Below, piece by piece: positions 1-12,586 of a stretch of 12,586 nucleotides of DNA (positions are counted from its first letter, which is position 1; the number at the start of each line of letters is the position of its first letter). The notes below the pieces were generated by a model. It saw only the letters and a list, made by a program, of their open reading frames with translations, was not told where the DNA came from and searched no databases. The DNA is taken from assembly GCA_016748015.1 (NCBI GenBank), contig JAAOMT010000335.1:1-12586 (forward strand). The letters are read 5' to 3'. This stretch comes from Geosiphon pyriformis uo1. Lineage: Eukaryota; Fungi; Glomeromycota. A program made the translations under genes and the position numbers.

Positions 1-640
1 TAGATGGGATGGTGGTGTGGGCATATGGGTGGTAAGGGGGCTACATTGGGGTATAGAGGTGGATATGGTGGGATAATTGGGTATGGGGCATGTGGGCACA
101 TTTTGACATGTTTGGTCTGGGTCTGGGCATATGGGGCCACATGGGGAATCTTGGGTATAGTGTGATTGGGGCCACATCGTGGCTATGGGGTAGAATATGG
201 GCATATTGTGGTAGTATGGGGCCACATGGGCTACAATAGGGGATGGGCATATGGGGAATGGTTGTGGTATGGGCATATTGGGGACTCTGGTTTGAGAGGG
301 CTACAATGGGATATGGGCATAGGGGCTACAATTTGGTGTGGGTGGTGGTATTGTGGGATAGCGCATATTGGGTGGTATCTGGCGTGATATGGGTATTGGT
401 GGCAGGTGCCACATGGTGGTTAGGGTTGCCACATTGGGCATATCGTGAGTATGGGCCACATCTTGGCAGATATGAGCTACATAGTGGTATAATGGGACAT
501 CTAGGGCAACATCCTGTTGCATATGGGTATTGGATGCCACATAGGGCATATCGGGTGGTGTATATGGGTATAGGGCAATGGTTGGGATAGGGATAGGGTA
601 TAGTGGGATATGGGATACCTCTAGTGGCATAGGGACTACA
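1..640 (+). repeat. Distal end of the G/T-skewed arm (also shown at 10187-10826)
   Basis: Same vocabulary as 6830-10186. The first 60 nt contain 29 G, 16 T, 12 A and 3 C. Composition switches abruptly at ~640. Confidence 0.9.
463..493 (+). promoter_or_regulatory. Possible sigma70-type promoter upstream of the structured region
   Basis: TTGGCA (463-468), a 19-nt spacer and TATAAT (488-493) with the extended TG (TGGTATAAT), ~155 nt upstream of unit 1 on the RNA strand. It could be chance in this composition, and the host domain is unknown. Confidence 0.2.
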
Positions 641-649
641 TGGATACTC

Positions 650-3125
650 AGCCTCATGCTTTACACCATCATGGTGGATGGTAACCCGACTAACTCGTAA
701 GTCATTCCGAATTAGCCCATACTCTACCCGCCCCGGGTAGTACGGTTGTGGAAGGCTTCAGCATCCCAACCCTAACTTTCTATTTGCCCCTCGGCCGTAC
801 CAAACGGCCTGAGGGTACTGCTAAGGGTTCGCCTTTGGTTGAAACAAAGGGTACAACCCAAAAGCTATCGGATAGTACTCTGGTTAGGAGCCTATAAGGT
901 CCGATTTAAGTCACAACCTTGTAGCATAACCTCCCAAACCTATCCTATGAATTAGGAAATGGATAAGATGGTTGTTATAGGAAACTATAAGATTTGAGAT
1001 AGAGTGGTGGATATGGTTAGGAGCACATGGTTAGTACTAGAGACAGGTCCCATCAAACCTCTTACTTAACCAAACAATCCCCTCCATGAACTGGTAATCC
1101 ATAATTATGGGTAGTCTTAGCTTGTCAGTCTCCGCTGCGGATGGCAAGACCCGTAACATGGTACTATACCATTGCGGCCAACCAACTTACTTCAACAAGC
1201 CCCCCATAACCTGAAGTCAGATCCTTTCGGGAAACCGAATAGTCTTTCTAAAGGTCCTTCATGAACACTGTCTAGTGGGGTGCTGACCATGATGGTTACT
1301 CCATATCCATACAGTGATTCAACTGTGCACTCTTCCCAATACGTTACAAGGGGGTGTGTAAGGTATTGGATGGACCACGCTGTACTCTCCCCGAACTCCC
1401 AAAGTTCATAGGTACAGGGCCCATTCGACTTTAACACCTATACTCTTGAGCAGCTTAGATAGGTCCATAACTGAGTAGTACGTTGGTAATATTGGTACTT
1501 TCAAAGAATACCTCCTCCTAATCACAAACCTCCCAAACATTTGGACCCGAAGTTTATCCTTAGAATGGTGCTTTATTTGGTAGGCTTCTATGGGTTACCA
1601 TAACCACACTACACACACCAAACCAGTCATCACATCTCACCAGTGTATTGGGTGCCTAAAATTAGAAACAGGCATCCGATCATACCAACCCGATCCTCGG
1701 TCTATCCACAAAGGATAGGGCGGAACAGGTATGGCTAAGTAGCTTCTAGGATATACACCCCCAAGATGGATTGTTGTCCACGCTTTGGCATAGTTCGGTG
1801 GCATGGTCAGATTCCTATCCCAATAGGAACCCCCCCACCAACCGGTTATACCTACCACTATTGCTTTAGACATGGCCGTCCGGTACACTCCCTAGGGGTT
1901 AGGGTAATGTACACTTCGGCCGTGGACACATCGGGGTCCCTTCCTACACTGAGGTATGCTTAAAGGATTGAGGTATCCTTGGACGGCATGAAGGGCCACA
2001 CGTGTGGTCATATAACTCAGTTCAGCCTTCCCCACTATTCAATGGTTATTGTGGGAGAAAGGCTTAGCCTAATCCTACATTAACCTTAACTGGGGGTTAG
2101 GGTAAATGGGAATTGGACTCCGATCCACGTATATCCCTGTATCGCTACCCATCTTATCTGTCACAGCCAAGGAACCAGTACTCTTACCCTCTCCAAATAT
2201 GGATTGGGTGTAGACAGATTATTCGGACTTACAGTACTACTCTCTTCATAAAGAAGGAGTTCTACCATAACTCAGTTACCTATACTTTAAGCTATAGGGA
2301 TAAGCTCTTGTAGTAATAGACTTAAGCCAACCGAACTCCCGTCCTCCTAAGGAAGTGTCCAGGTGCATAGTAGGTAGTCCATTGGGATGGGAACCCCCCC
2401 ATAGCACGGCAGCTCTGAGTGGTAACCACCATTTAGACTGTACGTGTCTCTAGATCCCTCCATTTGGCCCCTAATACGTCTGGAAGGCGTCGAAGGGTAT
2501 CCTCCTCCCCAGGTAACACGAATCCCCTGTACAACACCCTTACCCCCCCCCAAATTGGGGGGATAAGAAAGGGATTGCGATTACTCGCCATTACCTTACT
2601 CTTGCCTAATCGATGATTAGGCTGGAGTGGACAGGCTGGTTGGCTATCCACCAACTGTAAGATTCCTCAGTAATGAGAACTCTTAAATACTCCCCTTACA
2701 ATGGGGTTGATATTTGACCAGTTGTGGAGAACCTACCACTTGTCCGGGTACAGGGCTCGTAATACCTGGGGGGAACTATGTACCACTGTAATGTTACCAT
2801 CCCCACACTGAACCATCTATTGTGGCCAGGCGTAGGCAGTGGGACTGTATCCTTAGCCTTAAAGCTATGGTTCATGTAGGAACCCACGTGGTTCCCTTCC
2901 TATTGCCAAACAACCCCATGATGATTACAGTAGGTTACATTGAACACACACTTCTGGACTAAGGTTTGAGAGGACCTATAGGGTAAACCTTACCATAGGC
3001 ACCTTAGTCCCTTCCCCGGGATAAAGGTTCATCCGGTACAAGTAGTGGGGATCTCCCAGACTTGCTCAGGAAAGGGGGGCTTGTGCTGTAGCTGCATGTA
3101 CCAAACCAACTGTACACGTCTACAT
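650..3125 (+). ncRNA. Large structured RNA unit, copy 1 (~2.48 kb; A part 650-2657, B part 2658-3125); family unassigned
   Basis: Dense hairpins: CCCTC-GGCCGT-accaa-ACGGCC-t-GAGGG 788-815, TTATAG-gaaa-CTATAA 975-990, TTCGG-gaaa-CCGAA ~1226-1239, CTCA-gtaa-TGAG 2666-2677. Long-range helices ATGGTAACCC 678-687 / GGGTTACCAT 1592-1601 and AGAGTG 1001-1006 / CACTCT 1328-1333. Colinear anchors are shared with copies 2 and 3. Confidence 0.72.
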
Positions 3126-5399
3126 AGCCTGCATGCCTTGACACCATCATGGTGGATGGTAACCCATCGTCGGGAACAATACGATCTATGCTTAGTACCA
3201 CCCCACCCCCTTTTTAATGGGGCGATTGACCTTGGTAGCCTAAAGCATCCCGTCTCAATACGAACTTGCCCCCCCCCTCGGGTACCAAACCCTGAGGTGG
3301 AGGACAGCCAAGGGTCCCTGTATAGTATGGCGCTATACCATATCGGAGCCCTATTGATTAGATAGGTACTAATGTACGATTTGTCTAACCTGGTAGCTAT
3401 ATCATGCTACACCTTACTTCCCTTGTTAAATACAGGGATAGGTAAGTATGGAATCTGATCTAGTTTTACTGCACTAGCAGATTAGAGATAAAGTGGTATG
3501 GTCAATCGGGTCCTAAATAGATTGAATCTATAAAGGATACCCAACCCCCCCCCCCCCCAACTTTAACCACCACTCTTCTCCTAACTATAAAGGGGGGATA
3601 TAGTAGGATAGGACCCCTCTACACTACCTAATGGGTACCCAAACCCATCCTGATGTGGAGGGCCCTATTCGACTTGAACATCAATTCTACTTCTATATTA
3701 TCCTGGTGGGTCCAACAGGTTAAATACAAGAATGGTATTATCCAATCACTATACCAAACAACTTCCAATCAAACCAATAACTAATATTCCCTTTGCACAC
3801 CTACCTCTTAGCTAGTGGGGGATCCTCTCTAAAGTATAGGAGGATAAGCTATTTGGAAAGTTGGGTACATAGTAATGACCTATCAAAGGGCTCTAAACTA
3901 GTTCCCAGTGCATATCCCAGTCATTAATCTAACCATAACCATTTAATATAACAATCTTGAATCCCTACTCAGCGGGGTCCTTGACGTGTCCATGCCATGA
4001 GGGATCATATGGTATATGGCCAGTGCCTGAGGCTCGTTCCACATATGGAATGAGGCAGGGATTAGGGTCATGGGAATTACCCCTTCCCACCCCAATATAC
4101 CTTTGGGTTCCTGCCACGTCCATAAGTACTCTTCTTAGAGTCTTAACCTACTCGCGGAGGGACCACCTGTAAAGGTAACCGGTACTTAATCAATAGGTTA
4201 TTGTACATTTGTTACCACCGATCCATGTTTTGATTGGGCGTCCTCCCATGGGTGGGGTTCGTCAGGATGGTCACATATGGCATACCTATCGATCATAAAG
4301 GTATTACTTACCTCTTGGTAGATAGTAAGCACCTCATATTGGCAAACTCGGACTTGGAACTGGGGCATGAGTAGGAACAACTTATACACTTGTAGATCCC
4401 TAACCTAGGGATCCCTGCCCCACACTTAGTATAGTTGGAGATATAAAGTATCAATCTACTTAAGCCCCCACACTCCCATGGCCTTAGTAGACCAACAGGG
4501 ATTTGAGTAGGTAGTCCATTTGTGTGGGACCCTACAGGATTCAGAGTCCTGTGAAGGTCCCCCCATTACAGGCTGTGTGTCCCCTGTGTCTCTATCCATT
4601 TAGGCCCCGAAGACGGTTGTCAACCGTCGCGACGGGTATCCTCTTTAACAGGCAACCCGTGTACCCTGTCCGCCATGAGAGAGGGCTCCATAACTGGGGC
4701 CCCCCAACTCTCCCTCACTACCTGGGGACCTAGGTAATGAGAGGCAATTCTACTTTATCTCACCCCTATAATTAGGGGCGGATCCCCCAATCTGGTAGTC
4801 ATACAAGGTGGGGAGTCTAATGGATAGGCTGGTGGCTCTACACCTACTGTAAGACACCCTAGTAATAGGTATTGTCCGGATCCCTTACCACCCCTTCCGG
4901 GTGATTAAAGGGGGCTTTTGGGAGATCTGATTATACCCTATAGCCGATACACAGTAGTGAATGACCTCCTGCCCGTCCGTGCAGGACAGGGTCTTGTAAG
5001 GCCTGTTATCAACTTTTATCACTGCCTGAATCCAAAGTATCCGTCTTAGGCGTTCCCATGAAGTGTGGGTATCCTAAGTGCAGTGGGATAGCAAGTTCTG
5101 GGACCATCAGCCTAATTCAGCTTCCCTGGCTCATAACCGGGGGGGTTCGGGATGGGATAATATATCCATCCAACTCTCAGTTATTACCCCTTTGGACCAT
5201 ACAGAATGGATCGTAGATGGTGCAAAGTCAACAGGAACTAAGGTCTACTTGGTGGATAGGACCCTGGTACCACTGACCTACCTCCAGAGCACTTGTGCTC
5301 TACCAATGATTAGGGTTCATGTTGTACATACTGTCTTGACAGTCTGCGGAGGGATAGGGGCTGATGGCTAAGCTGCAGTGTCCGAACCCTTGCACACCG
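3126..5399 (+). ncRNA. Large structured RNA unit, copy 2 (~2.27 kb; A part 3126-4850, B part 4851-5399)
   Basis: Exact 25-mer ACACCATCATGGTGGATGGTAACCC at 3141-3165 = 663-687. Exact 15-mer AGTAGGTAGTCCATT at 4506-4520 = 2369-2383. CCTATTCGACTTGAACA ~3664-3680 vs CCCATTCGACTTTAACA ~1420-1436. TGGATAGGCTGGTGGCT..ACTGTAAGA ~4821-4854 vs ~2628-2662. Covarying hairpin CCTA-gtaa-TAGG 4858-4869. Confidence 0.72.
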
Positions 5400-6812
5400 T
5401 CTTCATGCCCTAGGATAACTTACCAATCCTTGGTGTGATTGACTACCCCTGTCGTCCGATACTAATCGGACGGTCGGGAAACTGGGCTCCCATAGGAGCC
5501 CCAGATGGCAGGGATCCGCCTCCCACCACTCCCCCCGTTTGCCCACTCGGTGGTACCAATCCCCTGAGGGTGCGGGCGATAGCATTCTGTCTTTAAGACA
5601 GTTTGGCACTCTGCCATATCGTAGTCTGTATTGATTAGATACCTACTGAGGTCCGATTTAAGTCCACCTGTAATCCAGCCTGATTGTCCACCCCCCTTAT
5701 TATGAGGGAATGGGGAAATAGGATAGGTGACTGGTGTGACTGCCATAGCAGGTTGAGATAGGATGGCGTACTTATTACTATGGTAGGGCCAGGTCATAAA
5801 CAACCTCCCTCCCAACAGCTACTTCCTTAATCGACCCCCACCCCAACCCGGTCCCCCTCATGAGCCCCTTTACAAGCAGAGGTAACTGTACTTGTCTACC
5901 CATACACCAAGGGGGGTGGAAGATTCAGGTGTATGAGTATACGCTTACCCCCCCCCACACGGGGAGTGTGGTAGTCCGTTGACTGGCTATCCCCACCGGA
6001 GGTTCTAATGAGGTCCCATTCGATCGGTTGGGAATCGACTATATGGTAACTGATATTTGGTTTATGCCCATGGCCTCCCCAAACTATCATAGAAGATAGC
6101 CCTTTTACCCAAACCATCCTTTCCATAGCCTAACAGGAGGTGTTATATTCTGGTAGGACCATTATGGACTCCCCACTGACCTTAAACGGTCACGGGTCCA
6201 GGACCCTATCGACTTTAACATAAGGACAACTCTCTGATCCCCTAAGGTCCTAGGAACTATCACATATTTAAATGTCTGGTAGGGGTAGGAAGATAAGGTC
6301 TAACAACCTGACAATAGTACCTTCTCAGAATAAGAACCCATTGTGCCCCCCCCTCACTTTGGAGGTATGGATATGTAAGGATATCCAAGTAGGTGAGTGG
6401 TATCAATAGCCCCAAACACCGGGCCCTAGGAATATAACAGCCTAGTGCCTATGCTAATCCTCATCCGAAAGGGATCCTACTATCATGTGGTAGTCGCCCC
6501 CCAACCACCATACCAAACCTTATACACCTCATAATCCCCTAGCCTCTCTACGTTGGTATACTATCACAGGTTTATACTGAGGCCTTTCCCTACAGTACAT
6601 CTAAGGAAGTGGCAAATGTAGTGGCTGGGTAGCACTCCTTTCCCAATGGAATCCGGGGTACCCCAGAACCTGGGATCTCCTACAGCCTCATGGCGCATTG
6701 TGTTGCTACCCCTGTACAGATACCTTGTTGGGTAAACCCTCTATCATAAGGGAAGATCCTTTACACAGTACTTATGGTTATTGTGGGCTTTAGGCCCCCT
6801 ACCTAGCCGTAT
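5400..6812 (+). ncRNA. Large structured RNA unit, copy 3 (~1.4 kb; A part only, shortened middle, no B part)
   Basis: Exact 16-mer AGGTCCGATTTAAGTC at 5649-5664 = 897-912. TATTGATTAGATA 5629-5641 = 3352-3364. CCCTATCGACTTTAACA ~6204-6220. CTAAGGAAGTG 6601-6611 = 2347-2357. CCCCTGTACA ~6709 vs ~2524. Closing helix GGCTGGGTAG 6623-6632 / CTACCTAGCC 6799-6808. Confidence 0.65.
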
Positions 6813-6829
6813 AAAGGCATATTTAAGGT

Positions 6830-9800
6830 AGTCATATGGTGGGATATAATGGGACATGGTGGAATATAGAGGGTGGTTATGGGGTATAGTGGATATAGGT
6901 ATAGTGGATGGGGTAGAATAGTGGGGCCACAGGGGGCATTTGTATATGGTGGCCACATTTTGTGCCACATGGTGGAATGGGAATACCTCTTGGTGGGCAT
7001 AAGGGTTGATATATAGGTCTAGGGACTACCTTTGGTTATATGGGCTACATAGGGTAGGGTCTAGGATACCACATGGGGATTCTAGAGGGTGATACATGGT
7101 GGCCTCTTTGTTGAAAGGTCCTTGTGTGCCACATCCGGGCATAGTGGTGAGGGATCTGGGGGTTAGATAGGGGTAGTGGGTGGTATTGTTGGGTAGTGGG
7201 TTCTTAGGGGCCACATGGGGCATTGGGTTGAGTGTCCCATCTTGTGGGTAGAGGGGACATGGTTTGTAGTGGGGCCACTGGGCATATTGGAAATAGTGTT
7301 ATAGTGGAATATGGTAGGACATGGGCTATTGGGTGGGATAGATGGGACATATGGGTATGGGGCAGATAGGGACTATTGTGTAGAGGTATTGGGGTAGTAA
7401 TGGGCAGATGGTGGTAATAGTGGTTGATAGTGGGATATTTACTATTAGGGGCCACATACTGTGGCAGTTGGGGTTTGGTGGGATAATGGGCTACATTGTG
7501 GGATCTAGTGGGTGTATGGTGGGGATCTTTAGTATTTGGTGCCACATCGGGCAACATTGGGGCTACCTAGTGGGGTAGTGGTTCATAGTGGGTTAGTGGG
7601 CTATAGTGGGATAGTGGGGCCACACTGTGGCACATGGTTGGGATCCTGTGAATAGGGGATCTAGGGTATGGGGATGCCACATCCTGTTGCAGATGGGTTT
7701 GTATGGGCCACACATTTTGTGGTATTTGGGTAGTATGGGGCTACAGAGGGAATGGTTGTTGGGCTACCTATGGGGCATAGGGCTATATTGTGTGTGGTGG
7801 ATATGAGCTAGAGTGCTACATAGGGCATAGGGCATATGGGATAGTAGTCGGGGATGGGTCATGGGGCAGATAGGGGATATCTGGGTATATAGGGCATCTG
7901 GGATAGGTATAGTGGGATATCCTGGTATGGGACAGGATGGGTCAGGGTCATAGGGGTATGGTTGGGCCACATAGGGCATATGGGCATCATATGGTAGTTG
8001 TGGTATAGGGGCATATGGTGGGACATATTGGATGCCCCAGGGCATAAGGGGTAGAATATGACATCCTCTGGGATATTTGGAGTATGGGGCCACATATGGC
8101 ATATGGGTCTAGGGAATGGTTGGGATAGTGCCCATCTTGTTTGGCTGGTATTCTAGGATATCACATAGTGTGATTGGTGAGATGCCCCATCTCAGGGCAT
8201 AGTGGCTATTAGTGGAATATGTAATATAGTGGTGGCACATGGTTGGATAGGGATACCACACGGGCATATGGTATGATGGGTAGTGGGTAATAGGGTAGAG
8301 TGGTTATGGGACATCATGGGAGTTATGGGATGGGTAGGTATGGGTCTGTCTCATATCATGTGTGGTATGGTATAGGATGTCTCCTATGGGGCTCTGGTAC
8401 CTAGGGCTTGGTTATTAGTGTGCCACATAGGTAGATGGGCATAGGGAGGTAGAATGGGGGCAGATTGTGGATACCACTTGGTCTATTGGGTAGTGGCCCC
8501 TCTGGGCATGGGTAGGTCACATCTTGTGGTATATGGGCACATAGTGGAAGTGGTGGGGAATCTGGGCATATGGGTGGGATATAGTGCCACATCTTTGGAC
8601 ATCTGGGACATTAGGGATACCAACATCGTGGTATATTGGGATGGGGAAGGGATAGTGGTTATGGGTATGGTGGGTAGAATGGGTATGTGATTGCCCATTG
8701 GGCATAGGGAGGTCTAGGGGATAGGGAAGGGTGGTTAGGGGGATAGAGGCCACATTTGGATTCTGAGGGGCCCTGGGGGCCTCTGTTGATGTGTCACCTA
8801 TGGGACCTGTGTGGTAGAGGGTCTGGGCACATTTGGCATAGTGGGTGGGGTACTCTGGGCACATGGTCTGGTCTGGGTATCTCATGGGTTATGTGGCATC
8901 TTTGTATGGGTTATAGTGGATGCCCAGGGGGCAGATAGAGGTCTAGTGGGGCCCCTTTTTGGCCCCTTTTGTGGGATATCCTATGAGTATGGTGGTAGAT
9001 GGTGGGATAGTTTGATTAGGTGGCATATCCTATGGGATCTAGTGCCACATCCATGTTGCTTGGGAGGTGCCACATAGGGCTCCATAGGTATAGGTGGATA
9101 GGGGCTATTGTGGAAGATATTGGATACCACCTCTTGTGGCACATTGGGATGGTAGGGATCTAGGGCTAGAGGATATAGGATGCCACATGGGGCATAGTAG
9201 GACATTGGATGCCCCCATCATATGGGAATAGTGGTAGGTATAGGTTCTTGTGGTTATGGTTGATAGGGCTACATAGGGTATCTGGGTGTATGGCACATAA
9301 TTGGCCACATCCTGTGCATAGTGGCATCATGTTGGATGGAGCTATTGTTGGTAGAGTAGTGTAAGGGTTGGTAGAGTAGTGGTATAGGGTAATATGGGTC
9401 TGGGGCCCTAGTTGTGGTATCTTGTGGCACATGGTACATATGGTGGGATATGGTGGTAATATTGTGCCACCTGGCTATGGGCTACATCATGTGGGTCTGG
9501 TGTGGTATATGGGTAGAGGGGCATGGTGGATATATTGGGTATTGTTTGGTGCCACATCGGGCACATTGGTTATTAGGGTGCCCCATTGTGGGATCTGGGT
9601 TGGAGTGTCACTATTGTTTGCCACATCATGTTGCATATGGTGGATACATTTGGTCATGGGTCTGGGGCCCCTTTGGTTTTGGGGCCAATGGGGGTTGGGG
9701 GTGCAAGTGGGGGCCAATTTGGGTTTGGGGAATTGGTGTTGGGGGGACCAATTTGTGTGGGTTGGGGGGCCAATTTGGGTTGGGGGTAATTGTGTTTGGT

Positions 9801-10186
9801 GTCCAATGGTTGGGCCAGTTGAATTTGCGTTGAATTTGTGTTTGGGGACCAATTGGGGTTGGGCTAATTTGGTTTGGGGGGCCTATTTAGAATTTTGGGT
9901 GGGTTTGGGAATTTGGGTTTTGGCCTATTTGTGGGGCCAACTTGGGAATTTTGGGTGTCAATTGGGATGGGTTTGTGGCCAATTTGGAATTTGGATTGGC
10001 CATTGGTGTCAATTTTGATGGTGGTGGGCCTCTTGGGAATTTGGGTTGGGCACATTTGGTGGATATGGTAGAGTTTGGACATTGGGGATATGGGCGATTT
10101 GGTATTGGTGGGATAGGCAGTGGGCCACATGGGGCATATAAGTGATATGGTGGGATAGAGAGTGTGCCACATGTTGGATGTGGTGG
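6830..10186 (+). repeat. G/T-skewed low-complexity arm of dispersed short words; continues through the origin into 1-640 (~4 kb total)
   Basis: C is rare and mostly confined to the words GCCACAT, GCTACA, GGCACAT, GGGCATA, GGATCT and GGATAC. Roughly 50-60 GCCACA/GCTACA/GGCACA-type words by eye, all on one strand and in mixed reading frames. Longer recurrences include GGTGCCACATCGGGCA(A)CATTGG at ~7538 and ~9548. Confidence 0.9.
9680..10050 (+). repeat. Degenerate (CC/G)AATTTGGG / GTTTGGG repeat subdomain with dense G-runs
   Basis: AATT cores at 9716, 9731, 9750, 9772, 9788, 9822, 9833, 9851, 9866, 9891, 9910, 9947, 9960, 9981, 9988, 10011 and 10038, flanked by G-runs. The GCCACAT word is absent here. 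Confidence 0.8.
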
Positions 10187-12586
10187 TAGATGGGATGGTG
10201 GTGTGGGCATATGGGTGGTAAGGGGGCTACATTGGGGTATAGAGGTGGATATGGTGGGATAATTGGGTATGGGGCATGTGGGCACATTTTGACATGTTTG
10301 GTCTGGGTCTGGGCATATGGGGCCACATGGGGAATCTTGGGTATAGTGTGATTGGGGCCACATCGTGGCTATGGGGTAGAATATGGGCATATTGTGGTAG
10401 TATGGGGCCACATGGGCTACAATAGGGGATGGGCATATGGGGAATGGTTGTGGTATGGGCATATTGGGGACTCTGGTTTGAGAGGGCTACAATGGGATAT
10501 GGGCATAGGGGCTACAATTTGGTGTGGGTGGTGGTATTGTGGGATAGCGCATATTGGGTGGTATCTGGCGTGATATGGGTATTGGTGGCAGGTGCCACAT
10601 GGTGGTTAGGGTTGCCACATTGGGCATATCGTGAGTATGGGCCACATCTTGGCAGATATGAGCTACATAGTGGTATAATGGGACATCTAGGGCAACATCC
10701 TGTTGCATATGGGTATTGGATGCCACATAGGGCATATCGGGTGGTGTATATGGGTATAGGGCAATGGTTGGGATAGGGATAGGGTATAGTGGGATATGGG
10801 ATACCTCTAGTGGCATAGGGACTACATGGATACTCAGCCTCATGCTTTACACCATCATGGTGGATGGTAACCCGACTAACTCGTAAGTCATTCCGAATTA
10901 GCCCATACTCTACCCGCCCCGGGTAGTACGGTTGTGGAAGGCTTCAGCATCCCAACCCTAACTTTCTATTTGCCCCTCGGCCGTACCAAACGGCCTGAGG
11001 GTACTGCTAAGGGTTCGCCTTTGGTTGAAACAAAGGGTACAACCCAAAAGCTATCGGATAGTACTCTGGTTAGGAGCCTATAAGGTCCGATTTAAGTCAC
11101 AACCTTGTAGCATAACCTCCCAAACCTATCCTATGAATTAGGAAATGGATAAGATGGTTGTTATAGGAAACTATAAGATTTGAGATAGAGTGGTGGATAT
11201 GGTTAGGAGCACATGGTTAGTACTAGAGACAGGTCCCATCAAACCTCTTACTTAACCAAACAATCCCCTCCATGAACTGGTAATCCATAATTATGGGTAG
11301 TCTTAGCTTGTCAGTCTCCGCTGCGGATGGCAAGACCCGTAACATGGTACTATACCATTGCGGCCAACCAACTTACTTCAACAAGCCCCCCATAACCTGA
11401 AGTCAGATCCTTTCGGGAAACCGAATAGTCTTTCTAAAGGTCCTTCATGAACACTGTCTAGTGGGGTGCTGACCATGATGGTTACTCCATATCCATACAG
11501 TGATTCAACTGTGCACTCTTCCCAATACGTTACAAGGGGGTGTGTAAGGTATTGGATGGACCACGCTGTACTCTCCCCGAACTCCCAAAGTTCATAGGTA
11601 CAGGGCCCATTCGACTTTAACACCTATACTCTTGAGCAGCTTAGATAGGTCCATAACTGAGTAGTACGTTGGTAATATTGGTACTTTCAAAGAATACCTC
11701 CTCCTAATCACAAACCTCCCAAACATTTGGACCCGAAGTTTATCCTTAGAATGGTGCTTTATTTGGTAGGCTTCTATGGGTTACCATAACCACACTACAC
11801 ACACCAAACCAGTCATCACATCTCACCAGTGTATTGGGTGCCTAAAATTAGAAACAGGCATCCGATCATACCAACCCGATCCTCGGTCTATCCACAAAGG
11901 ATAGGGCGGAACAGGTATGGCTAAGTAGCTTCTAGGATATACACCCCCAAGATGGATTGTTGTCCACGCTTTGGCATAGTTCGGTGGCATGGTCAGATTC
12001 CTATCCCAATAGGAACCCCCCCACCAACCGGTTATACCTACCACTATTGCTTTAGACATGGCCGTCCGGTACACTCCCTAGGGGTTAGGGTAATGTACAC
12101 TTCGGCCGTGGACACATCGGGGTCCCTTCCTACACTGAGGTATGCTTAAAGGATTGAGGTATCCTTGGACGGCATGAAGGGCCACACGTGTGGTCATATA
12201 ACTCAGTTCAGCCTTCCCCACTATTCAATGGTTATTGTGGGAGAAAGGCTTAGCCTAATCCTACATTAACCTTAACTGGGGGTTAGGGTAAATGGGAATT
12301 GGACTCCGATCCACGTATATCCCTGTATCGCTACCCATCTTATCTGTCACAGCCAAGGAACCAGTACTCTTACCCTCTCCAAATATGGATTGGGTGTAGA
12401 CAGATTATTCGGACTTACAGTACTACTCTCTTCATAAAGAAGGAGTTCTACCATAACTCAGTTACCTATACTTTAAGCTATAGGGATAAGCTCTTGTAGT
12501 AATAGACTTAAGCCAACCGAACTCCCGTCCTCCTAAGGAAGTGTCCAGGTGCATAGTAGGTAGTCCATTGGGATGGGAACCCCCCC
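10187..12586 (+). repeat. Second copy of 1-2400 (wrap-around overlap of a circular contig)
   Basis: Start, end and all translated ORFs are identical to 1-2400. The overlap is a round 2,400 nt, which suggests it was added during windowing. Confidence 0.93.
10836..12586 (+). ncRNA. Wrap-around duplicate of the first 1.75 kb of structured unit 1
   Basis: Identical to 650-2400 at an offset of 10,186. Confidence 0.65.

Follow-up and report, generated by a model that had tools for sequence, protein, structure and literature searches.

A putative long-range helix closing the first domain of three diverged noncoding modules on a high-copy 10-kb unit from Geosiphon pyriformis

In group I and group II introns, peripheral insertions are found within paired regions, and domain I is closed by a long-range stem. 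GOLLD, ROOL, and OLE are large orphan noncoding RNAs of bacteria that have entries in Rfam. One published account gives diplonemid mitochondrial chromosomes as 2-12 kbp (PMC7049700). Here, we describe a 12,586-nucleotide (nt) stretch of DNA from Geosiphon pyriformis uo1 (contig JAAOMT010000335.1, positions 1 to 12,586, forward strand; hereafter the window), in which comparison of the core with itself revealed a noncoding module present in three tandem copies; these have diverged strongly and are recognizable by short anchors in the same order. An earlier sequence-only reading had flagged, in each copy, short complementary strands as a helix closing a domain of 0.8-1 kb, and all 12 of the strings that it quoted lie exactly at the positions it gave.

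The explanation that we tentatively favor, for which belief falls just short of doubt, is that the flagged strands are the two halves of a helix, P1, that closes the first ~0.8-1.0 kb domain of each of the three module copies. As judged from the sequence and from folding models, P1 is likely to be real in copies 1 and 3, where the 5' strand has its P1 partner as the top-ranked one and the spacing matches, and it is weak in copy 2; the helix is not proven.

P1 in the three module copies

The module copies and the strands of P1 are as follows.

637-3112, + strand: module copy 1, comprising domain A (637-1606), domain B (to ~2055), and domain C (to 3112), with anchors collinear with those of copies 2 and 3
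3113-5401, + strand: module copy 2, with collinear anchors
5402-6830, + strand: module copy 3, shorter and without a separate C domain
678-687, + strand: P1 5' strand of copy 1 (ATGGTAACCC), whose best partner within its own copy is 1592-1601
1592-1601, + strand: P1 3' strand of copy 1 (GGGTTACCAT); 1590-1601 can in addition pair with the copy-2 5' strand over 12 bp
5438-5447, + strand: P1 5' strand of copy 3 as revised here (ATTGA-C-TACC), whose best partner in copy 3 is 6399-6407
6399-6407, + strand: P1 3' strand of copy 3 as revised here, contiguous (GGTATCAAT), supported by spacing, energy, and a permutation test
6281-6288, + strand: inner 3' strand of copy 3 in the sequence-only reading (AGGGGTAG), which matches two occurrences of CTACCCCT equally well, at 5443-5450 and 6706-6713
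3156-3166, + strand: P1 5' strand of copy 2 (ATGGT-A-ACCCA), with ATGGTAACCC at 3156-3165
3862-3866, + strand: candidate inner 3' half of P1 in copy 2 (TGGGT), which can pair with ACCCA at 3162-3166 and includes the GGGT (3863-3866) of the sequence-only reading
3867-3931, + strand: 65-nt hairpin interrupting the candidate 3' strand of P1 in copy 2, with stems 3870-3872/3929-3931 and 3873-3879/3920-3926 (TAATGAC at 3873, GTCATTA at 3920)
3932-3936, + strand: candidate outer 3' half of P1 in copy 2 (ACCAT), inside ACCATAACCA, which is common with copy 1 at 1597-1606

For copy 1, P1 consists of 10 bp, or 11 with the G688.U1591 pair, and is the best of three sites of at least 8 bp that the 5' strand finds within that copy. 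The helix is part of the minimum free energy (MFE) structure of the domain, and its pairs reach probabilities of 0.86-1.0 when domain A is folded either alone or together with domain B. Two permutation tests were applied to the three copies. The first allowed split helices, searching a target window of ~310 nt for two blocks with an insert of up to 150 nt between them (2000 shuffles per copy), and the second (3000 shuffles) used a narrow window of 40 nt, placed where the partner was expected, and a wide one of 309 nt. Copy 1 gave P values of 0.011 in the first test and of 0.007 (narrow window) and 0.019 (wide window) in the second.

For copy 3, the sequence-only reading had paired ATTGACTACCCCT at 5438-5450 with AGGGGTAG at 6281-6288 and TCAAT at 6403-6407, which amounts to 8 and 5 bp separated by a 114-nt insert. 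This overlooked a contiguous pairing, 5438-5442/6403-6407 followed by 5444-5447/6399-6402, of 9 bp with one bulged C, which is the best of three sites of at least 8 bp for that strand in copy 3. Constraining the fold to the contiguous helix costs +1.2 kcal/mol relative to the MFE, versus +6.2 kcal/mol for the split version, and the outer pairs of the contiguous helix have a probability of ~0.4. The contiguous 3' strand lies 190 nt after a conserved TCGAC anchor, close to the distances of the P1 3' strand from that anchor in copy 1 (167 nt) and copy 2 (194 nt), as compared with 72 nt for the inner strand of the split version. Permutation P values for the contiguous helix are 0.024 in the 40-nt window and 0.106 in the 309-nt window, and the split pairing of copy 3 was borderline in the first test (P = 0.056). 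Since the contiguous pairing needs no insert and is preferred by both energy and anchor spacing, the proposal that copy 3 carries an insertion at the same point as copy 2 is not supported.

The change from ATGGT/ACCAT to ATTGA/TCAAT, which the sequence-only reading had interpreted as a double compensatory change, is real at the sequence level, with two positions compensated, and the contiguous model for copy 3 both preserves it and adds two further compensated positions. The cognate copy-3 duplex is worth -8.5 kcal/mol, versus -5.1 to -6.2 kcal/mol for combinations of a 5' strand from one copy with a 3' site from another. The outer five pairs of P1 occupy matching places in the module, just 3' of a small hairpin, H0, on one side and just 5' of an A(A/G)CC...CCAAAC stretch on the other. 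Diverged sister contigs from the same sample lose similarity to the window exactly after 687 and after 5447, that is, at the ends of P1 5' strands.

The pairing in copy 2 is less straightforward. Here, P1 would comprise 5 and 5 bp around one bulged A and the 65-nt hairpin, which is self-contained, has a base that abuts the break, and is located exactly where the 3' strand of copy 1 runs continuously. This hairpin is the one good case, read from the sequence, for a modular insertion. The 5' strand of copy 2 is identical to that of copy 1, so that copy 2 contributes conservation of the strand and no covariation. The expansion-segment behavior that the sequence-only reading had suggested is confined to copy 2 at most, and the likeness to ribosomal RNA (rRNA) or self-splicing introns is an analogy only; Rfam gave no matches.

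If the helix forms as we favor, the + strand would be transcribed, possibly as one precursor spanning the copies, and P1 would form cotranscriptionally, after domain A has been made in full but ahead of the competing strands in domains B and C. With the inserted hairpin, P1 of copy 2 would become a three-way junction resembling that of an expansion segment, and P1 of copy 3 would form without any insertion. At a guess, the module RNA could be a self-organizing structural or scaffold RNA, with the 5' domain as an independent folding unit and the CCAAAC loops as contact or binding sites.

Anatomy of the module and its local hairpins

Each module copy opens with a CATGC-like box and the H0 hairpin, which has 5 bp and a 3-nt loop; the P1 5' strand starts 1-3 nt after H0 in each copy, and a local hairpin comes next. 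A 25-mer is common to copies 1 and 2 (663-687 = 3141-3165), and a block ending in TCGACTTTAACA links copy 1 (1356-1436) to copy 3 (6140-6220) with an E value of 1.8e-7. Further anchors are a TTAG...CGATTT box, GAGATAG, and ATGGTTATTGTGGG. The local structures that bear on P1, together with a truncated module start, are the following.

664-676 (copy 1), 3142-3154 (copy 2), and 5422-5434 (copy 3), + strand: H0 hairpin, CACCA/TGGTG in copies 1 and 2 and compensated to ACCAA/TTGGT in copy 3
788-815, 3276-3297, and 5546-5568 (copies 1, 2, and 3), + strand: hairpin with a UACCAAA/U loop, conserved in all three copies
1368-1426 (copy 1), 3606-3670 (copy 2), and 6152-6210 (copy 3), + strand: base of the A5 hairpin, GGAUGG/CCAUUC, GGAUAGG/CCUAUUC, and GGUAGG/CCUAUC, respectively
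6683-6716, + strand: fourth stub, start-like in that its sequence (CAGCCTCATG ... CTACCCCTGT) is similar to the copies' 5' ends

For the UACCAAA-loop hairpin, no matches would be expected by chance, yet it is present in all three copies, and its inner stem (GGCCG/CGGCC, GGG/CCC, and GG(U)GG/CCCC) varies in length and sequence while the pairing stays. The stem of A5 likewise shows compensated changes and retains the same G.U pair in every copy, which favors the + strand as the strand that exists as RNA. Taken together, the compensated changes and the conserved G.U in these neighboring local hairpins argue for structural constraint on the module. The domain of copy 1 (660-1620) also folds with a z-score of -5.9 on the + strand versus -2.4 on the - strand (20 shuffles each), and the domain of copy 2 gives a z-score of only -2.0.

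Several recurrent sequences were observed in the core. CCAAAC occurs 14 times versus 2.2 expected, often in hairpin loops (798-804, 3283-3289, 3637-3643, 3096-3115, and 6409-6424), and from its placement it may be a recurrent loop motif used for contacts or binding. GGTAGTC occurs six times versus 0.6 expected (at approximately 1109, 2374, 4511, 5970, 6489, and 6827), and its complement, GACTACC, sits in the P1 5' strand of copy 3, so that the apparent partners of that strand are multiplied. The + strand contains C runs of up to 14 (about 3545-3558, 2541-2563, and 5947-5964), and several hairpins formed by C runs and G runs are conserved between the C domain of copy 1 and the A domain of copy 3. 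The B domain of copy 1 has GGGGTTAGGGTA twice (1895-1906 and 2093-2104), which resembles a telomere repeat with only two units in each case. The stub at 6683-6716 is truncated, lies inside the tail of copy 3, and duplicates the motif of the copy-3 5' strand. From the TTAG anchor, helices can be drawn at 3350-3360/4187-4197 in copy 2 (11 perfect bp) and at 881-890/1515-1524 in copy 1 (10 bp with one G.U); together with 5629-5635/6402-6408 in copy 3, these were considered as a second long-range helix and rejected, as the partner positions differ between copies. An alignment of the first ~370 nt with MAFFT and RNAalifold misaligned the 5' end of copy 3 and was not used as evidence.

Weighing P1 against other explanations

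A number of observations weigh against the presence of P1. The core contains 26 perfect inverted repeats of at least 10 bp at distances of 200-2500 nt, versus 15.6 +/- 4.5 in 200 dinucleotide shuffles (fraction of shuffles with at least 26: 0.02), and since about 16 of these matches are expected by chance, a lone 10-bp match is ordinary. In addition, the 40-nt windows of the second permutation test were picked after the data had been seen. Windows of 300 nt give weak fold z-scores with no strand preference. There are just three paralogues, and effectively one independent comparison, that with copy 3, carries the covariation. The split pairing of copy 2 does no better than chance (P = 0.67 in the first test and 0.15-0.45 in the second), and its helix has a probability of ~0 and an ensemble cost of +8.4 kcal/mol.

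Folding of entire copies is also unfavorable to P1. When the whole 2.5-kb copy 1 is folded, the probability of P1 drops to 0.002, and the energy argument is thus valid only if folding is sequential. In the full fold of copy 3, both versions of P1 have a probability of 0 because 5440-5447 pairs with 6827-6834. The likeness of 6289-6402 in copy 3 to 1465-1591 in copy 1 is not significant (z 0.84, P 0.19), so that the case against an insert in copy 3 draws on spacing and energy, not on homology.

Each P1 strand also has other possible partners. The region of the copy-1 5' strand (676-685) matches 2793-2802 over 10 bp. The GGG of copy 2 forms part of a second candidate, a local helix of 9 perfect bp (3556-3564/3857-3865), and the best contiguous partner of the copy-2 5' strand is 3631-3639, itself an arm of a conserved local hairpin. 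The TCAAT of copy 3 can form a 7-bp helix with a conserved TATTGAT box (5629-5635/6402-6408), and the second partner of AGGGGTAG, CTACCCCT at 6706-6713, is part of the start-like stub and is used by the MFE structure of the full copy (6280-6295/6699-6714).

The number of matches expected by chance, the chance-level pairing of copy 2, and the many partners of each strand speak for the explanation that is, after the one we favor, the best sustained, although we consider it unlikely. Under this explanation, no long-range RNA helix exists, and the complementary strands are inverted repeats that arose by chance or were inherited in noncoding DNA rich in repeats, which could be a complex satellite or a chromosome of organellar or plasmid-like type that lacks genes. 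Recurrent short boxes shared by the copies (GGTNACC-type, CTACCCC, GGTAGTC, and CCAAAC) create many apparent pairings by themselves, and automated helix matching across the three copies returned 1025 'conserved' triples, a search too permissive to inform. Two other runs of the same sample contain next to none of the element's sequence, which fits this explanation as well, although it says nothing about expression and is not evidence of silence. Chance would nevertheless have to have placed P1 as the top-ranked partner in both copy 1 and copy 3, with its position agreeing with that of independent anchors, to have compensated its outer 5 bp, and to have surrounded it with hairpins that show compensated changes and a conserved G.U.

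A second explanation, which we regard as improbable, accepts that the strands pair but assigns them other partners, or lets them alternate. One possibility is that the 3' strand of a copy reaches forward to the 5' strand of the copy that follows, so that domains B and C are enclosed; another is that 5438-5447 of copy 3 pairs with 6827-6834 and closes the whole copy rather than domain A. The perfect 12-bp match between 1590-1601 and 3156-3167 is longer than the helix within copy 1, and the partners preferred in the full MFE fold of copy 3, together with the loss of P1 from the full fold of copy 1, point the same way. However, cross-pairing between copies 1 and 2 follows automatically from the identity of their 5' strands, and full-length MFE folds of RNAs of 1.4-2.5 kb are unreliable. 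At the junction between copies 2 and 3, the ACCAT site of copy 2 barely pairs with the copy-3 5' strand (duplex +0.2 kcal/mol), and the GGGT site gives -7.2 kcal/mol, versus -8.2 kcal/mol for the cognate strand. A rule of pairing with the next copy is therefore at best weak at that junction, and complementarity follows the copy more than the neighbor.

The remaining and least probable explanation, that the inverted repeats work at the DNA level as cruciforms, recombination sites, or replication signals of a high-copy replicon and that conservation of the hairpins reflects DNA structure, is compatible with the negative fold z-scores found on both strands in several windows, the high copy number, and the iteron-like array described below, but arms of 10 bp lying 0.9 kb apart are poor substrates for cruciform formation or recombination, the G.U (G.T) of A5 in all three copies would be a C.A mismatch on the other strand, and the domain of copy 1 folds better on the + strand.

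Should P1 and the fold of the module prove true, the window would contain an unclassified family of very large structured RNAs, and its three paralogues on one molecule would constitute a natural series on how a big RNA tolerates insertion and divergence. Should the pairings instead be due to chance, they would make a cautionary case, as 10-bp long-range complements arise about 16 times by chance in this core and split helices arise almost anywhere.

The carrier element and its relation to known systems

The three modules occupy only part of a larger unit. Positions 10187-12586 repeat 1-2400 exactly, with 0 mismatches, which defines a unit of 10,186 nt, and the joint from 10186 to 1 is present in one contig of the source run, the only public run with the sequence and probably a DNA source. 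The exact 2,400-nt overlap and this joint indicate that the unit is either a circle or a head-to-tail array. It is composed of two parts, the ~6.2-kb core (637-6830), which is balanced in composition and slightly G-poor on the + strand, and a G-rich repeat region of ~4 kb, in which G makes up 38% and C 12% and the GC skew is around +0.5.

1-636, + strand: first part of the G-rich repeat region, with a GC skew of +0.4 to +0.66, running on across the unit junction to form one block with 6831-10186
6831-10186, + strand: main part of the G-rich repeat region, with small hairpins of the GCCACAT motif and, at ~9640-10060, an iteron-like array that contains CCAAT
10187-12586, + strand: unit overlap, identical to 1-2400, being either the wrap-around of a circle or the second unit of a tandem array

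The G-rich region contains 27 GCCACAT motifs, most of which take the form (G/T)GCCACAT-N(0-5)-G(G/T)GGCA and give small imperfect hairpins; their spacing is irregular (9-429 nt), and Tandem Repeats Finder (TRF) detected no regular tandem period among them. The sub-block at ~9640-10060 is distinct, with ~15-20 short GGCCAATTTGGG-like units (TRF periods of 18-23 and 50), and its sequence resembles an array of iterons or protein-binding sites, making it a candidate replication origin or promoter region. A scan for promoter and terminator consensus sequences gave matches at or below the shuffle expectation, and antisense complementarity between the core and the G-rich region did not exceed a run of 18, inside the null range of 16-21.

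The element is present in high copy, with a word depth of ~85-350 in the source run. By the crude measure of summed contig depth, the G-rich region lies at 85-270 versus ~125-150 for the unique core, which is no large excess. Further contigs of the source run, similar in word depth (about 100-220), align in patches to the element (80-99% identity), and these contigs jump between module copies, for example, from 687 to 3290, from 2683 to 5418, and from 5447 to 5536. Patchy, copy-jumping contigs at similar depth imply at least one related sister element in the same sample.

Searches for genes in the window were uniformly negative. The longest open reading frame (ORF) of the core has ~127 codons, and every single or double reassignment of stop codons that was tried left no convincing open frame. 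Among 138 stop-to-stop ORFs of at least 45 amino acids (aa) under genetic code 4, none scored above the curated Pfam cut-off and two gave sub-threshold hits, and translations of all six frames over their full length, in which X replaced each stop, matched no Pfam family at E <= 0.1. None of 99 windows of 300 nt had a period-3 signal above the 99th percentile of shuffles, and ARAGORN predicted no tRNAs. Known RNAs fared no better. Rfam 15 returned no matches at gathering thresholds for the whole window or at E <= 5 for 600-6900, including for the models of rRNA, group I and II introns, and large bacterial and phage noncoding RNAs (GOLLD, ROOL, OLE, etc.). Eight universal rRNA motifs were found with no fewer than 2 mismatches, most of them only at 4 or not at all, and the best matches to the universal minicircle 12-mer of kinetoplasts had 2 mismatches (five matches versus 4.98 expected).

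A search for relatives by blastn, using the core and the G-rich region against phages and plasmids, gave no match, and scans of viral contigs with exact or degenerate motifs found none. The same kind of scan yielded three loci in GTDB genomes and one in JGI metagenomes; all four are AT-rich and have nothing else in common with the window, and we consider them chance matches for that reason. A literature search on ORF-less circular or structured elements found nothing pertinent. A high-copy circle or tandem unit of ~10 kb with sister molecules, and with no gene detected and no relatives found, whether in phage, plasmid, and viral collections or by scanning prokaryote genomes and metagenomes for motifs, falls outside the usual categories, and we could not place the element among those that are known. 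A doubtful though wider reading is that the window represents a complete, high-copy, protein-free replicon whose sole cargo would be tandem paralogous structured RNAs of 1.4-2.5 kb with P1-closed 5' domains, the G-rich region of hairpin repeats and iterons recruiting replication functions in trans. If so, it would define a new, RNA-only class of genetic element, and the same sample would contain sister elements.

Comparison with described systems gives partial likenesses at the level of both the RNA and its carrier. As in the domain-closing helices of rRNA, P1 would join strands ~0.9 kb apart around an independently folding domain, and as in rRNA expansion segments, copy 2 has a self-contained hairpin at a fixed point of a helix whose flanks are conserved. 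Unlike rRNA, the element has neither rRNA homology nor a ribosomal context, consists of three tandem paralogues, and has a single convincing insertion, that of copy 2. With group I and group II introns, the module shares large size (1-2.5 kb), domain-closing helices, and optional peripheral stem-loops, but it matches no intron covariance model and has no exons, intron-encoded ORF, or recognizable catalytic core. GOLLD, ROOL, and OLE are similar in being large and ornate, of unknown function, and sometimes multicopy on mobile DNA, whereas the modules described here are 2-4 times longer, stand three in a row on a gene-free replicon, and have no Rfam match.

Among carriers, viroid-like circular RNAs and Obelisks are likewise circular by mapping, without homologues, and rich in structure, but the element is ten times larger than such ~1-kb circles and has no ORF above 130 aa in its core, whereas Obelisks carry an Oblin ORF. 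Judged by base composition only, a molecule that combines a 4-kb stretch of 38% G and 12% C with a core of balanced composition would be unlikely to fold as one rod along its whole length, and neither in composition nor in its size of 10,186 nt is the element viroid-like. Diplonemid chromosomes differ from the element in that no gene module was detected here (0 of 138 ORFs above the Pfam cut-off and 0 of 99 period-3 windows) and, as far as the crude depth measure goes, in the coverage of the G-rich region, which is ~1-2 times that of the element itself, where a constant region common to dozens of chromosomes would be expected to show an excess; from kinetoplast minicircles, the element differs in that the universal 12-mer is no commoner than chance. 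With both diplonemid circles and kinetoplast minicircles, however, it has in common a size of ~10 kb, high copy number, circularity by mapping, mostly noncoding and repeat-rich sequence, and sister molecules in the same sample. A gene-free, high-copy unit of ~10 kb that carries paralogous large modules is stranger than the flagged helix itself.

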